From Nitrosopumilaceae archaeon (GTDB lineage Archaea; Thermoproteota; Nitrososphaeria; Nitrososphaerales; Nitrosopumilaceae), in assembly GCA_965207375.1 (NCBI GenBank), contig CBDBMG010000002.1:224001-288000 (forward strand): a stretch of DNA of 64,000 nt, written 5' to 3'. A model generated the notes under the pieces. That model saw only the letters and a program-made list of their open reading frames with translations. It made no database searches and was not told the DNA's origin. A program made the translations under genes and the position numbers. Each line of letters opens with the position of its first letter. Position 1 is the stretch's first letter. Positions 5,317 to 10,890 of the stretch are shown one piece after another.

Positions 5317-8300
5317 CTATGTTTGGATTAAATGTAAAGGCCAAGCTATTACTTCACCTACATTTATATAGTCACTTTCGTCAAATGGTGTTTTAAACAG
5401 TAATTTAGTTTTCTTGTGAACACTAGTTATTGCTACTTTTTGGAAAAGTAAAGGTATTGTCTTTCCATAAAGCATTGGTCCTTCAACTGCAATCCCATTT
5501 GCAACCACTTTTCCATTGAAAAGTAGCTTCACAGAGGCTGTAGCAGAATATCGCATAAGATGGCAGTCAGCTGATTGAAGCAATAGAATTAGTAAAGGGT
5601 ATATGAACATAGAAAGCTTTGTATACCTTCAGGAACAGTTGGTTGGTTATCTTGACACTGCTGGTTGTTACTTGCAACTGCTAAATGATTAAAAAAACAT
5701 ATACGTAGTTTACAAAAGCATTAGCTTAAGGAAAACAGTTGCTACTCTAAATAAGTACTTATAGTAAGTAATATATACATGGTACGTATATGTATGTGTG
5801 AATGTATGGAGGTGCGTATATGACACCAATACCGATATAGCTGCTCCAATGAATTCATTATTGTATTGTTGCATTTTATACACAACATTTCATTACGTAT
5901 GTTCATCATATAGATTGCCTGCATGCCCTAGATAGCACACTTGTTGATGGTCCACTACTTTGCTAAAAAGGGATATCACATCCCCTAGATACTCTTTCAT
6001 TACAAATATAATATTACAAATAATGTTGATATAAATATTGGTATTGGTATCGGTGCCAATATATATAGCCATTTTGGTAATATTAGATATCGGCAAAAGT
6101 TGTGGTGGCAAGCCAAATATTTTTAACTGGATGTTCATTTACTTCTATTGTCAATGACTACGCTTGTATGTCACACTATGATGTGAGACCAATTCAAAGT
6201 CTGTGATAATAATGAAAAATACTGTAGTGCACCTCTAATGTACATACATTCACAGATGTACATACATTCACAGATGTACATACATACTTTTTCAAACATT
6301 TTACATCCAAAATGCCATAAATTTCAAATGCTTCCTCATATTCACTTAATTTTACCTTGTAGAACAATTTGTAGGCAATGAAAGAGCATTATGAGTTTTT
6401 AAGGAAAAATGGCAGGGTCAAATTTTATGTGAGAATTAAGAGGTACCCTTTTTGCAAATGGGGTCACACTAAACAAATGCAGATTGTCCCAGTCTAGGTT
6501 GCTGTCCCACTGCAGTAGTTACTGGTGGCTGTCCCACTGTTGTTGTTGCTGTTGCCACTGCTGTTATTGTTGGTGGTCGCTGTCCCACTGCTGTCATTGT
6601 TGGTCGCTGTCCCACTGCTGGTTGCTGTCCCAATGCTGTTGTTGTTGGTGTTCGCTGTCCCACTGCTGTCATTGTTGGTACGTAGCTGTCCCACTGCTGT
6701 CATTGTTGGTCGCTGTTCCACTGCTGTCATTATTGGTCGCTGTCCCACTGCTGTCATTGTTGGTTGCTGTCCCAATGCTGTCATTGTTGGTTGCTGTCCC
6801 AATGCTGTTGTTGTTGGTGGTTGCTGTCCCACTGCTGTCATCGTTGGTTGATGTCCCACTGCTGTCATTGTTGGTCGCTGTTCCACTGCTGTCATTGTTG
6901 GTCGCTGTTCCACTGCTGTCATTGTTTGTCGCTGTCCCACTGCTGTCACTGTTGGTCGCTGTCCCACTGCTGTCATTGTTGGTTGCTGTCCCAATGCTGT
7001 TGTTGTTGGTGGTCGCTGTCCCACTGCTGTCATTGTTGGTTGCTGTTCCACTGCAGCTGTCATTATTGGTTGCTGTTCCACTGCTGTCATTGGTGGTTGC
7101 TGTCCCACTGATACGTACATATATACAAAAAATATCAATCTGCATCATTTCCAATTAAGTAGATTAGTTATAATCACATCTCTATAAACAAATTTTATGA
7201 CATGAATTGGCTAATTGCAGTTATTTTCTCCCGTACTTTATGCATCTAGAAAATTGAACACACATGTATGTACGTACCTCTGAAACTGATTTGCTCTGCA
7301 TTTTCTAAAATAAGTCTCAAATTGGAAACTCCATAGTGAGAAGGTGGCTTAAAGTCAATATTTGGAGGAAAACCAACAACCTGTGATGCCTGTATGGAGC
7401 CATAAGGCACACGGGCATTGGGATCACCTGCTGCTAATGCTAAAGTAAAAACAACACCATTATGACTGGCTCTACAAAAACCCTCCATGTTCTCATGCAA
7501 ATTTTGAGAACTTTAAAATGTTTCTTGTAATGTTACAGACATTTGCATATTTATTGGCGTTAAAATGAAATTGATGCAACTATCAGTTTACAGTTAGTTT
7601 TGTGAGGCTATGTAAAATACACAAAAATGGAGGGTTTTCAGAGAGCCAGTCACTTAAATTAGGAGTGAAAAATTGAGGGATGTAAATTTGCAGATTTTGT
7701 AATTACTTGGATGCCTACAAAATTTCATCATCAAATTTGGATCTTTTCTACTAGAAAATTCAGGATTTTAGCCACCTGCAAAATTTATATCCTTTGCAAA
7801 TTTGTATGTGCAATTACACATGTATACCTAAACAGTGAATAACATACCATATTTAGAATTCAGCACACTCTGTACAGCTATGCACAGAGCAGTCTTATCA
7901 CCCTTAATATCCAATGAAGAACTACGAGATTCTAAACTCAAATTACCAAAAGGGAAGGTTTACAACTACGTATGTCATTTAAGAGTAAGATCTACATATA
8001 CAAAACATACGTGGCAAAAATAATGTTAATCAATTTTGTCTTAATCAGGGTATTTGATGCTGTATAGCGCACCATTGGCCCAATATAAACACTAAATGTT
8101 CCACCCTAGAATAACTACAGCTCCATTTTGGCACGAAATAATTTAGTTTTACAATTAAAGAGTCATTAATTATATTGGCCTACAATTTTTAACTGTGGCA
8201 CAGTGGACATGTAACTCTGAGCCAGTTTGGCTCAAAGTTAAACTCTTATATCAAAAACCCTGGTCCTTATCAGTATGCACCTTCAGAAAATACAGCAGAA

Positions 8301-10890
8301 GAAAAACGCCTTGAAAAATCAGAATTTTCACTCAGAAATTTGCATCCTTGTGCTGTACCACCATGGTAAACTTGATTGTTATTGTATACCATGTATACCA
8401 CTTGTATGTTGCACCTTTCTGCCCATTCAGCCTACACATAAAAAACAAAATATCACAGACCACTACAGCTATAGTACGTACGTATATACGTACTTCAGAG
8501 CAGGAGCTCATATGCACTTTAAGTCACAAAGGGCACATTGTGGTGCACGAGCTCCTGTTTAGAGTAGTAATTAAGTTTTCTGGACATTTTTTTACTGTAA
8601 TATGCACTATATATTAGAGCTGAAACAAATATCCGAATCCGTAGGATATCCGTTTGAAATCTACTATCCGGATTTAGATCCAGAACCCTTCAGGATAGTA
8701 GCTAATTATTTCAAGCAGTTTGAAATAGATTTTGAATTATCAATACTTTTTATAGCTACTGAAAGTGTTTAAAATTTATGTCAGTACTGTAAAAATATGC
8801 TTAAAGTACTTTATTAGTTGAACTTTAAGCATATCACAATACATCTAAATGTGTAAATTTAGATATAAATAGAAACCTGATGATGTCACTATCCGTAGGA
8901 TATCCGTGAACTATTATATAGGATCAGGATATCCAGATAGTAAATTCACTATCCGTTTCAGCTCTACTATATACGTATATATATTATAGTTTCACATGTA
9001 GTTATAATCTACCCCTGGGTCATACATCATCCAGTGTGCTAGCATGAGCTAGTAATGCCACTGGTCAATTCCTTAAGCTAACATGCCTACATACACAAAT
9101 GCACTTATAAACTTACATGCACTTACATTTCACTTCTAAACTACATAGCTACCGTATACAGTGCAAAATTTTGGTTGTGAGCTTCAGAGGTGAAACATTA
9201 AGAGATAAAGGTTTGTAGGAAACACTTTGATGAATCGCTAGCCATTTGTCTAATTCATCAATGTTTTCTGCCGTCAAACTTTTGTGCTATACAGTAATTC
9301 ATTTACTACTTACGTAGCTGATGAAACCAGGGACAATGTGAGTGAAATGCAGCACATACCTTCGCAAAACAGGCACGAGACCGATAGCGAACAAGTACCG
9401 TGAGGGAAAGATGAAAAGCACTTTGAAAAGAGAGTCAAACAGTACGTGAAACTGTCAGGAGGGAAACTAACGAGTACATTAATCTTAAAATATAACTGTG
9501 GCACAGAAACCGGATTTTGATTATTTGTTTTCCCTTCAATCATCAGCAATCATTTTCCAGTTTAGTGTGCATTAATAGGCCGTGTGGTTGGCTAGGATAT
9601 GTGGCCAGATATATATAGAGGAACTGACAATATTACATTATGTCAGTGGAGATTATAACTCGATAGAAATGATCAGACAAAATTAAGCCATAAAACCATA
9701 ATTATTGTCACTTAATTTGGTCAGACATCCAATATATTTCCTTAGAGAATTGATGTTAAAGTGGTCAGACATTTAGCTGAAAATATCAAATGTCAAACTG
9801 TTATAATCCCCTCTGGGTGTAAGTTTGGTAATAACTCTCATATATACACACCACATACACTTTTCTGTATATTGCGAAGAATCCTGTGAGCTTCACCCCA
9901 ACTGTCTGTTGGCATGTCAGCTGGTGCTACCTTAGCAGCATCTATATACTGCTTCTTGTCCTCTTCTGACATTGCCTTCCACTTCTCTGCAGCTCTTTGA
10001 TTTTTTCTTTCAATGATGGTAATGCTTTCCCTTCTAATATTATAATGATGATATGTTACTTGTATACATACGTATAACTTGTGTGCTGTGTGCTTTGTGT
10101 CTATACTCTCTTCAAGTGCACTGCAATTTGCATGTTTACTCCTGAAATATGTGTACATGCAATTACCCTTACAATAACACTGGTGTATTTTTATTGCTAG
10201 GTTACCACACAGGTATACAAAACACCTCATCTATGTGTACATGTATGCATACATAAAAATACAAGTGGATACCCAATACAATAAAAACTTAACTATAGTG
10301 ATGCTATAGTGATGTGCGATACATATCAAAATATTCCAATTACATGCCTTGTATTGAGATACATATGATACATCAGCCTGTGTGTATCTAATGCAAAAGT
10401 TATCAACTAAAAGAGTATAAAAAATCAAAAAGCTTAAATGGTGTATGTATATAGCTCATTATTATCAACAATCAAACATATATATCATGACACATTAAAT
10501 TTTGCTCTACAGCTTTGTGTCATAGATGTGTACATATGTACACATATATCTTACTACATACCATCTGATTTGTAAAAATCGGCAGTGAATAAATTGTAGC
10601 AATTTGGCACCCTGATTTTTTGGGGTGGCTTAAGAGGTTCCTCCTTGTCATGATCATGAGCACGCTTCCGTTTTGCTTTTTCATTGCCAATCCAATTCTA
10701 AAAAGATACAATATACACATGTGGATACACGATTGAGAAAATCACCTTTATTACGGCTTCATCACACTTCAGTTGATCAGCAAGGCTCTTGATGGTCTGT
10801 GCCTGGTTGGAATTTACCCCGTTGTCATATGCTTGTACTAGAATTCTTTTCTGTTCCTCGGTAAACACAGTTCTGGGGTGGGCACCAGTG
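5317..10890 (-). CDS. Multi-exon DNA-binding protein: homeodomain + HMG box + TFII-I-like N-terminal segment + GTF2I-like repeat + T/Q/P-rich repeats + C-terminal beta-rich domain (probable transposon accessory gene; this copy frameshifted)
   Basis: Phase-compatible exons: 10890-10746, 10697-10562, 10033-9859 (1 nt short), 8431-8281, 7931-7848, 7439-7278, 7107-~6480 (donor not identified), 5680-5627, 5570-5317. Translation: PRTVFTEEQKRIL..IK|NWIGNEKAKRKR..KIRVPNCYNLFTADF..AAEKWKAMSEEDKKQY..QVVYMVYNNNQVYHGGTAQGCKFLSENSDF..ALCIAVQSVLNSKYALAAGDPNARVPY..VVGFPPNIDFKPPSHYGVSNLRLILENAEQISFR..VANG..YGKTIP..KVAITSV..GEVIAWP. Start exon not located. Confidence 0.8.
6490..7107 (-). repeat. ~30-bp coding minisatellite (unit ~ TMTAVGQQP/RP) inside the accessory gene
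   Basis: About 20 imperfect copies of ctgtcccactgctgtcattgttggtc/tg. Preceded on the minus strand by an AG acceptor at 7109-7108, in phase with the upstream exon. Confidence 0.9.
8615..8966. mobile_element. hAT-type MITE in an intron
   Basis: TIR TAGAGCTGAAAC...GTTTCAGCTCTA; flanks CTATATAT/CTATATAC (7/8 TSD); subterminal atccg repeats. Confidence 0.75.
9372..9467 (+). rRNA. 28S rRNA (fragment): ~96-nt fragment of 28S (LSU) rRNA, conserved core just upstream of the D2 domain; isolated pseudo-fragment
   Basis: gagaccgatagcgaacaagtaccgtgagggaaagatgaaaagcactttgaaaagagagtcaaacagtacgtgaaac is the conserved eukaryotic LSU segment used for D2 primers. The flanks are not rDNA. Confidence 0.9.

Follow-up and report, generated by a model that had tools for sequence, protein, structure and literature searches.

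A gene with a TFII-I-type I-repeat as the probable accessory gene of a two-gene KDZ DNA transposon

The exons lying between positions 7278 and 10033 of the analysed stretch of DNA (64,000 nucleotides, hereafter the window) most likely represent the middle part of an accessory gene carried by a two-gene KDZ (Kyakuja-Dileera-Zisupton) DNA transposon, a reading of both gene identity and transposon context to which we assign a probability of about 0.7. The exons of the KDZ transposase gene were located at 130..3687 on the plus strand, where Pfam identified the CxC1 (3.3e-11, 43.7 bits) and KDZ (6.3e-10, 39.6 bits) domains, both above the cut-off; this gene and the accessory gene converge tail-to-tail and are predicted to form two separate transcription units. 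The right terminal inverted repeat (TIR) is positioned at 11194..12107, and its partner lies just to the left of the window (window coordinates -2267 to -1368). The TIRs, which are about 0.9 kb in length and start with CACCCGCTTC, share 94% identity over 928 aligned bases, and their outer 40 bases are identical (40/40). The right copy of a 7-bp target-site duplication (TSD), GCCCACT, was found at 12108..12114, and extension of the TSD to 8 bp fails. The element measures 14,375 bp (window -2267 to 12107), and its flanks are unique within the 4.3 Mb assembly. The proposal of a first-pass annotation of this DNA that the gene is transposon cargo is borne out by the presence of the gene and the KDZ transposase within one TIR pair with a TSD. 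Two side observations, to be taken as hints, concern the same element: one contig of run X2 appears to link both flanks across the full length of the element, and 10 copies of the heptamer AGTCAAG were counted where 2.3 are expected, 7 of them within the TIRs.

All exons of the accessory gene are encoded on the minus strand. The first coding exon (10746..10901) begins with an ATG at 10901, ends at a GT donor, and encodes the first two helices of a divergent homeodomain, which was detected by Pfam in the ORF at 10698-10982 (E 2.2e-5, 24.6 bits, cut-off 22.9). Across a 48-nt GT..AG intron, the second exon (10562..10697), assigned from its sequence and splice sites, encodes helix 3 of the homeodomain (NWIGN), a basic linker, and the first half of an HMG box; the second half of the box (Pfam HMG_box_2, 24.0 bits, cut-off 22.4) is found in the exon at 9859..10033, together with a linker and the start of the helix of a segment resembling the TFII-I N-terminus. 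This segment (helix, beta-hairpin, helix) occupies the exon at 8281..8431, as identified with a profile of eight relatives. The exon at 7848..7931 contains a linker and the first helix of a GTF2I repeat, as indicated by its AG/GT borders and an I-repeat HMM applied to the spliced product, and the core of the repeat is located at 7278..7439. Downstream, an exon at 6494..7107 comprises about 21 copies of a Q/P/T-rich tandem repeat with a 27-nt unit, part-way along which the open frame shifts, and the last exon (5320..5571) contains a C-terminal ...AWP domain and the stop codon. The last exon aligns with the partner genes of two other elements in the assembly (copies A and B, described below) and with the C-termini of Dysidea proteins, which carry the precomputed Pfam label PF26133. 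The order predicted from the sequence is therefore homeodomain, HMG box, N-terminal segment, one GTF2I repeat, low-complexity block, and ...AWP domain; the N-terminal segment and the I-repeat had been recognized in the first-pass annotation, but the homeodomain, the HMG box, and the C-terminal domain had been overlooked.

The four exons initially proposed (10033-9859, 8431-8281, 7931-7848, and 7439-7278) are all bordered by AG and GT (4/4) and, as had been claimed, are phase-compatible, since splicing yields one open frame containing exactly the peptide that was quoted. When exon 10033-9859 is entered from the ATG at 10901 via canonical splice sites, the translation reads EGKALPSLKEK... and then reaches a stop codon. 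Comparison with copy A revealed that the homologous frame in this exon starts only past an A6 run at 10006-10001, which indicates a 1-nt frame break at this run; the quoted peptide is encoded downstream of this run and is unaffected. In addition, a haplotig, C4, lacks window positions 8445-10321, including exon 10033-9859, and a joint equal to that of this haplotig was seen in contigs of runs X1 and X2. Because of the break in the HMG-box exon and the absence of this exon from the other haplotype, the window copy of the gene is probably defective.

Sequence and structural comparisons indicate that the I-repeat in the window gene is real, in agreement with its original identification. Pfam GTF2I (PF02946) matches exon 7278-7439 alone with an E-value of 1.8e-8 and 35 bits (curated cut-off 27), and a home-made I-repeat HMM aligned with the spliced exons 7848..7931 and 7278..7439 over model positions 9-79 of 80 (50.3 bits). 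A phmmer search of the PDB returned GTF2I repeats in 10 of 10 matches, the best of which was 2eje_A (3.9e-5). An AlphaFold model of exon 7278..7439 alone (pLDDT 85.3) was matched by Foldseek to GTF2I domains in 7/7 cases, with probabilities of 0.89-0.99 and TM-scores by query of 0.57-0.68, at E-values of only 0.2-0.6; with the model of a Dysidea relative, the best 10 matches were all GTF2I domains (E 1.7e-5 to 1.3e-3). A profile built from two copies identified 248 proteins at E <= 0.001, with vertebrate TFII-I ranking first, and ORFs ending at matching exon borders were found in many unrelated assemblies. The spliced product contains one I-repeat, and Pfam gives one match per element in the assembly.

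At the level of family profiles, the sequence comparisons indicate that the segment ahead of the I-repeat is homologous to the N-terminus of TFII-I/GTF2IRD1; its function in dimerisation is putative. A profile of the region ahead of the I-repeat in eight related animal proteins was searched against the 96,165 ORFs of the assembly, and exon 8281-8431 was the best and sole significant match (E 9.4e-4), the next, unrelated match having an E-value of 0.2. HHalign of the family profile with TFII-I/GTF2IRD1 N-termini gave a probability of 96.1% (E 2.8e-9) and a score of 45.1 over 53 ungapped columns, as compared with 11.8 for a reversed control and at most 15.4 for 100 column shuffles, and the result was the same with the window row removed. 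The HMM of the eight relatives scores window exon 8281-8431 at 21.9 bits and places the TFII-I/GTF2IRD1 N-termini at matching model positions. The exon was not recovered in a search of the assembly with a TFII-I N-terminal HMM. Thus, the earlier claim that an N-terminal block precedes the I-repeat as in TFII-I holds for the order and for the homology of the family profile, but not for the window exon alone, whose match to the TFII-I profile fails to reach significance (E 0.011, probability 3.8%). In the AlphaFold model of the Dysidea relative, the N-terminal segment was predicted with only moderate confidence (block means 51-71), and the C-terminal domain remained unfolded. According to a passage in PMC2865459, removal of the first 140 residues of TFII-I abolishes its co-precipitation of the wild-type protein.

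Two related elements were identified elsewhere in the assembly. Copy A (C3:77527-101072), whose ends match the CACCCGCTTC termini of the window element, contains a KDZ gene and, facing it, a gene with HMG box, N-terminal segment, I-repeat (Pfam 40.9 bits), and AWP domain in collinear order; inspection of its ends revealed no recognisable TSD. This second, diverged element with a like gene pair supports the interpretation of the gene as transposon cargo. Copy B consists of a KDZ gene and an AWP-only partner, with no I-repeat detected by the Pfam search of the assembly, and its end flanks (ACCAGAC / GTCTGGT) are consistent with a 7-bp TSD and an inversion. A further KDZ locus (C3:443405-443761) showed neither an I-repeat nor an AWP match. 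Between the window element and copy A, the transposase exons are only 36-67% identical and the parts of the accessory gene 28-41% identical, and the latter are alike in order and orientation. The similar divergence of the two genes, with their order kept, suggests long co-descent rather than recent capture.

These data bear on three rival explanations. That the exons are non-coding and their similarity to GTF2I spurious is extremely improbable: they are predicted from sequence and a frame break precedes the quoted peptide, but a single exon passes the curated Pfam cut-off, the two-copy profile leads to vertebrate TFII-I among its 248 proteins, every PDB and Foldseek match is a GTF2I domain, and ORFs with matching exon borders recur in many unrelated assemblies. 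An ordinary host gene merely adjoining a KDZ transposase gene would accord with the separate convergent transcription units; this reading, which we consider highly unlikely, is contradicted by the TIR/TSD structure, in which both genes are enclosed by a single 0.9-kb TIR pair that has identical tips and is flanked by a 7-bp TSD, and by the recurrence of the pairing at an unrelated locus with identical terminal sequence.

The third explanation, that the KDZ element captured a host homeodomain-HMG-I-repeat transcription-factor gene that has no role in transposition, is unlikely but carries more weight. Fish relatives resemble ordinary host genes, one having a zebrafish-style name (zgc:113176, Sardina P0152) and others being fused to C2H2 zinc-finger arrays (P0100, P0021), and copy B works, or survives, with an AWP-only partner. 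Fungal KDZ elements are described in a passage of PMC12730594 as known carriers of TET/JBP genes, which provides a parallel for such cargo. Passive carriage is harder to reconcile with the occurrence of the gene in two elements as diverged as the window element and copy A, and with the retention by all three related elements of a partner gene with a shared C-terminal domain. The accessory-gene reading is preferred. Overall, the observation made in the first-pass annotation is confirmed, and its interpretation is partly supported.

The sequence comparisons further show that the accessory protein belongs to an animal-wide family that shares the N-terminal segment and I-repeat module with vertebrate TFII-I. 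Public annotations include proteins with a single, Pfam-significant I-repeat from one sponge, one coral, one priapulid, one annelid, one sea urchin, one starfish, one tunicate, and several teleosts, and for some of these proteins the name, for example 'GTF2IRD1-like', was assigned automatically; the previous view of the I-repeat as a vertebrate feature is thus not upheld. No description of these proteins was found in the literature searched. The HMG box, N-terminal segment, and I-repeat core are shared by the 'GTF2IRD1-like' proteins of the demosponge Dysidea avara (P0196/P0228), which are the nearest annotated relatives, and by proteins of Montipora (P0215), Priapulus (P0147), Capitella (P0138), Lytechinus (P0059), Asterias (P0208), Phallusia (P0126), and a teleost ('zgc:113176', P0152). 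Fish and priapulid relatives have, like the window gene, a homeodomain with NWIGN ahead of these parts, and in domain order and the NWIGN helix 3 the window gene matches the teleost zgc:113176-like family. Dysidea P0228 combines HMG box, N-terminal segment, I-repeat, repeats, and PF26133, as in the window gene, the low-complexity block of the Dysidea relatives being positioned where the window gene has exon 6494..7107. In contrast, echinoderm relatives end in a chromodomain and some fish relatives in zinc fingers.

TFII-I and GTF2IRD1 are dosage-sensitive factors in Williams-Beuren syndrome. The window gene is a relative of this family, not a member: it has the same order of N-terminal helix/beta-hairpin segment and GTF2I repeat, but it contains one I-repeat as opposed to five or six, has a homeodomain and an HMG box before this module and low-complexity repeats and the ...AWP domain after it, and is transposon-encoded. 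In a tree of repeats, those of vertebrate TFII-I/GTF2IRD1 cluster together at an ultrafast bootstrap of only 16, and the window repeat is placed outside this cluster, with P0057/P0124 (bootstrap 100). Domestication of a KDZ accessory gene as the source of the vertebrate family is a somewhat doubtful proposition. The cassette of N-terminal segment and I-repeat would have resided on KDZ elements since early animal evolution, and would have shed the homeodomain and HMG box and multiplied the I-repeat to give rise to TFII-I/GTF2IRD1; the genes with one I-repeat known from sponges, corals, echinoderms, tunicates, and fishes would likewise go back to this mobile gene, either as additional copies or through domestications of their own. 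The literature searched contained no treatment of the origin of the GTF2I repeat. The data show that the repeat is joined to the N-terminal segment in a single module of ancient origin, that proteins with this module occur widely among animals, and that in at least one genome the module belongs to the gene that accompanies the transposase of a cut-and-paste element. Whether the TFII-I family came from a transposon, or a transposon captured such a gene, can now be tested directly.

An accessory function of the protein for the KDZ element is suggested tentatively, by analogy with other transposons. The three putative DNA-binding modules of the protein could recognise and bend the long subterminal regions of the element, and the C-terminal ...AWP domain, proposed as a coupler because it is the only part common to the partner genes of the three elements, may connect the protein to the KDZ transposase. 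Zisupton/KDZ transposons have a CxC and KDZ transposase of many exons, TIRs, and a TSD, as does the window element, and Zisupton is described as multi-exonic in a passage of PMC9297572. The window element differs in its TIRs of about 0.9 kb and in its TSD, which at 7 bp places it outside the Zisupton subgroup as defined by the 8 bp stated in part of PMC12730594. It also differs from Zisupton/KDZ elements as reported in its second gene, for a predicted multi-domain DNA-binding protein; no report of a KDZ element with such a gene was found in the literature searched. KDZ elements, so far known mainly for their transposase and fungal TET/JBP cargo, hence gain a candidate DNA-binding accessory protein. 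A Myb/SANT partner is mentioned for Nuwa/Harbinger in the same part of PMC12730594. As in the window element, PIF/Harbinger elements enclose a transposase gene and a separate gene for a DNA-binding (Myb-like) protein in one set of TIRs. En/Spm likewise encodes a DNA-binding partner, TnpA, beside its transposase in one set of TIRs, to which the accessory protein may be likened. The transposases and DNA-binding domains of PIF/Harbinger and En/Spm are unrelated to those of the window element, and the resemblance would be one of function.

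The gene that adjoins the KDZ transposase gene lies on the minus strand within 10901–5320, and four of its exons (10033–9859, 8431–8281, 7931–7848 and 7439–7278) had been read in the first-pass annotation as a TFII-I-like N-terminal segment followed by an I-repeat. Joined as predicted, these four exons give one open frame containing the peptide quoted there, and each has AG immediately before it and GT immediately after it. Upstream of them, Pfam matches and splice sites place the ATG and the first part of a homeodomain at 10901–10746 and, after a 48-nt intron, the NWIGN helix, a basic linker and the first half of an HMG box at 10697–10562; the homeodomain is divergent (24.6 bits against a cut-off of 22.9), and the HMG box matches HMG_box_2 at 24.0 bits (cut-off 22.4). 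Exon 10033–9859 encodes the rest of the HMG box and a linker, exon 8431–8281 the N-terminal-like segment (N-segment), and exons 7931–7848 and 7439–7278 together the I-repeat, beyond which are found Q/P/T-rich 27-nt tandem repeats from 7107 and a last exon (5571–5320) ending in ...AWP and a stop, all on the minus strand.

Followed from the ATG through canonical sites, exon 8431–8281 is entered in phase 2, and its reading requires phase 0. In the canonical phase, exon 10033–9859 reads EGKALPSLKEK... and then meets a stop; in the frame of the first-pass annotation it reads ...KNQRAAEKWKAMSEEDKKQY; and its equivalent in copy A, a related KDZ element of the same assembly, reads LPTLAAKNKKSGELWKALS in one single frame. 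On the 5′ side of the A6 run at 10006–10001 the homologous HMG reading is in the canonical phase, and on the 3′ side it is in the other frame. Since both frames of the window match the single-frame copy A and meet at this run, the window copy contains a 1-nt frame break, whether through a genuine frameshift or through misassembly of the homopolymer. A further frame shift occurs part-way through the Q/P/T-rich repeat exon.

The assignment of the I-repeat was confirmed by both profile and structure searches. In Pfam, exon 7279–7437 alone matches GTF2I (PF02946) at E 1.8e-8, scoring 35 bits where the curated cut-off is 27, and with a home-made HMM of 80 positions, built from 14 repeats of seven proteins, the spliced product of exons 7931–7848 and 7439–7278 covers positions 9–79 at 50.3 bits, indicating that the former exon provides the first helix of the repeat. 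A phmmer search of PDB sequences (E ≤ 10) returned ten matches, all of them GTF2I repeats of TFII-I, GTF2IRD1 or GTF2IRD2 (best, 2eje_A, 3.9e-5). An AlphaFold model of exon 7439–7278, obtained from a 15-row alignment (pLDDT 85.3), gave seven Foldseek matches in the PDB, every one a GTF2I domain, with probabilities of 0.89–0.99, TM by query of 0.57–0.68 and E values of only 0.2–0.6 for this 53-residue query. A sequence-index search with the same exon found only three near-identical ORFs; its exact ORF is recorded on four contigs, with four further variants at at least 90% identity, and a metagenome scan with the I-repeat returned one 1.4-kb contig, too short to show gene context.

The proposed likeness of the preceding segment to the N-terminus of TFII-I holds at the profile level, leading from the window to a family of relatives and from this family to TFII-I. 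The stretch between HMG box and I-repeat was aligned for nine family members, one of them the window, and compared by HHalign with an alignment of twelve TFII-I/GTF2IRD1 N-termini (67 residues surrounding the VVGTE motif); the two alignments matched over 53 ungapped columns at 96.1% probability (E 2.8e-9, score 45.1). The reversed family alignment scored 11.8, and 100 column shuffles gave a mean of 9.2 (SD 2.0, maximum 15.4). The probability was again 96.1% without the window row, and the window sequence alone was aligned to TFII-I in an unchanged register at E 0.011 and 3.8% probability. An HMM made from the eight relatives other than the window, run over all 96,165 assembly ORFs of at least 25 codons, ranked exon 8431–8281 top (E 9.4e-4), followed by the copy of this exon in the haplotig; the match after these was at E 0.2, and the copy A segment was absent among the matches listed. 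On 229 collected proteins, this HMM gave 21.9 bits for the window exon and 15–26 bits for TFII-I/GTF2IRD1, in which the match is always N-terminal, before repeat 1, at model positions 9–59. An HMM of TFII-I only did not find the exon among the assembly ORFs, and the link is therefore real yet transitive. In the AlphaFold model of P0228, a protein of the sponge Dysidea, the segment is predicted with moderate confidence as a helix (73–94), two strands (99–104 and 107–112) and a second helix (114–126), the HMG box and I-repeat are confident, and the best 10 PDB matches are GTF2I domains.

The KDZ gene itself is represented by plus-strand exons at 130–3687, which match Pfam CxC1 (3.3e-11) and KDZ (6.3e-10); a sequence-index search with a KDZ exon found one protein. 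A BLAST search of the region against the assembly (4.3 Mb, four contigs, including C3, of which the window is 224001–288000, and C4) identified an inverted repeat of 928 bases at 94% identity (C3:221733–222632 versus 236107–235194), the outer 40 bases of which are identical and start with CACCCGCTTC. These terminal inverted repeats (TIRs) are flanked by GCCCACT as a direct repeat, a 7-bp target-site duplication (TSD) with no extension to 8. The element is 14,375 bp long and encloses the KDZ and cargo genes tail to tail, and the 100 bases on each side of it are unique within the assembly. The suggestion that the module is transposon cargo is thus supported in this genome, the gene and a KDZ transposase being enclosed by one TIR pair and TSD, and the pairing recurs. 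An open frame 3′ of the KDZ exons (3760–4305, plus strand) contains tandem repeats of a 72-nt unit that are acidic and rich in Asp, and these may constitute a C-terminal tail of the transposase.

The region C4:15665–34545 is 99.9% identical to the window locus, flanks included, and hence represents the second haplotype, not a second insertion. This haplotig is without window 8445–10321 (1.9 kb), exon 10033–9859 included, and the same joint is present in contigs of two public DNA runs, X1 and X2; also missing from it is an insertion of ~0.9 kb just right of the element (12284–13174), relatives of which, at 94–98% identity, were observed at C3:9086–9833 and C4:840472–841362. Contigs from four DNA runs were compared, and most of the long joints close to the ends of the element, whose sides measure 18–30 letters and fall in highly repeated flanks, were set aside. 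A single X2 contig bridges the entire element, its left-flank and right-flank parts being separated by 32 divergent letters, and is taken only as hinting at an empty site. Farther along the window, a LINE-like (reverse-transcriptase) element with extended open frames lies on the minus strand at 15127–17248, with long (TG)n/(CA)n microsatellites on either side (14590–15060 and 17610–17800).

Matches to PF02946 occur at three places in the assembly: the window locus, its haplotig and C3:86001–86180. Around the last of these, in copy A, tblastn with the window exon peptides gave four collinear plus-strand matches, corresponding to the second half of the HMG box (C3:83991–84152, E 0.006), the N-segment (C3:84305–84385, E 0.035), the I-repeat (C3:86022–86183, 1.3e-7; Pfam, 40.9 bits) and the C-terminal AWP domain of the last exon (C3:87631–87843, 2.5e-8). 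A minus-strand KDZ gene (C3:98337–92859) faces these matches, and the termini at C3:77527 and 101072 are CACCCGCTTC, as in the window element, with no recognisable TSD at the ends. Between the two elements, the transposase exons are 36–67% identical and the cargo parts 28–41%. In copy B, another related element, a KDZ gene (C4:630283–626132) faces an 82-codon ORF consisting of the AWP domain only, no I-repeat being found in the assembly search; its two same-oriented CACCCGC-type ends (C4:611295 and 634581) are followed by ACCAGAC and GTCTGGT, reverse complements whose sequence suggests a 7-bp TSD plus an inversion. At a further KDZ locus (C3:443405–443761; 34 bits, 161-codon open frame), neither an I-repeat nor an AWP match was detected nearby. 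The assembly contains four distinct KDZ loci, three with an AWP-type partner, two of these partners having an I-repeat. The co-divergence of cargo and transposase in two elements, together with the retention of the partner gene in three, argues for a long-standing association in this lineage. A profile search of proteins with the AWP domain found only two Dysidea proteins, and its matches in the PDB were at chance level (E 0.67 or worse); the last exon had no match in the Pfam set used, which is without PF26133, and no mention of 'DUF8039' was found in the literature searched.

TFII-I and GTF2IRD1 had been described as generally vertebrate factors; for the I-repeat, this restriction is out of date according to the databases. 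Single- or few-repeat proteins with Pfam-significant GTF2I matches are present in the sponge Dysidea avara (some auto-named 'GTF2IRD1-like'; contigs of three different sizes carry copies), the coral Montipora capricornis, the priapulid Priapulus caudatus, the annelid Capitella teleta, the sea urchin Lytechinus pictus, the starfish Asterias amurensis and the tunicate Phallusia mammillata, as well as in the teleosts Sardina ('zgc:113176'), Poecilia, Channa and Dicentrarchus. A two-sequence profile of the I-repeat exons of the window and copy A, searched against 1.84 billion representative proteins, matched 248 at E ≤ 0.001, the best being bird and caecilian TFII-I and GTF2IRD1; many of the matches are short ORFs from ENA or Logan assemblies, bounded by the same exon borders. 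Like the window gene, the fish and priapulid proteins combine an NWIGN homeodomain, an HMG box, an intervening segment and an I-repeat, and Dysidea P0228 has the HMG box, the segment and the I-repeat, together with tandem low-complexity sequence; its C-terminus can be aligned to the last exon of the window gene and bears the precomputed label PF26133. The echinoderm relatives end in a chromodomain and some fish relatives in zinc-finger arrays. Two Asterias amurensis proteins with I-repeat and chromodomain (P0208/P0130) show a weak, sub-threshold KDZ match in their N-terminal part (E 0.0024, 18 bits), possibly a trace of KDZ linkage in this starfish.

The direction of descent can be read in two ways, as hypotheses: vertebrates domesticated a transposon gene, or KDZ elements captured a host gene. 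In an IQ-TREE analysis of 51 repeats, from which repeats with fewer than 50 matched model positions had been dropped beforehand, all 33 vertebrate TFII-I/GTF2IRD1-type repeats fell into one group with a bootstrap of 16, the deep branches being without usable support; the window grouped with proteins P0057/P0124 (bootstrap 100), and window plus coral had a bootstrap of 50. A 993-aa protein, P0021, whose repeats grouped with the priapulid protein (bootstrap 87), differs in I-repeat architecture, combining four GTF2I repeats and roughly ten C2H2 zinc fingers with an N-terminus that resembles a homeodomain and contains NWIHFQN. The cargo gene is richer than originally described, and the domestication hypothesis is testable.

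We infer that the cargo protein could serve as a DNA-binding accessory factor of the element, in which the homeodomain and I-repeat would recognise sequence and the HMG box would bend it. Its site of action would be the long terminal regions with AGTCAAG, a motif found 10 times in 19 kb versus 2.3 expected, seven of the 10 in the TIRs, whose counts are not independent because the TIRs are copies of each other. The C-terminal domain might contact the transposase, and the N-segment might self-associate, as in TFII-I; PMC2865459 reports that TFII-I without its first 140 residues no longer co-precipitated wild-type TFII-I. A predicted complex of two copies of P0228 residues 70–140 (N-segment) scored 0.22 against a mark of 0.42, giving no call either way.

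A literature search found no paper combining GTF2I with KDZ and nothing for 'zgc 113176', and among the matches listed there was no paper on I-repeats outside vertebrates or on a second KDZ gene. In a term search, 'GTF2I repeat', 'I-repeat' and 'GTF2I domain' were not found in the GTF2IRD2 misannotation paper (PMC10641963). Zisupton is described as multi-exonic in PMC9297572 and as having 8-bp TSDs in PMC12730594, whereas the TSD of the window element is 7 bp.
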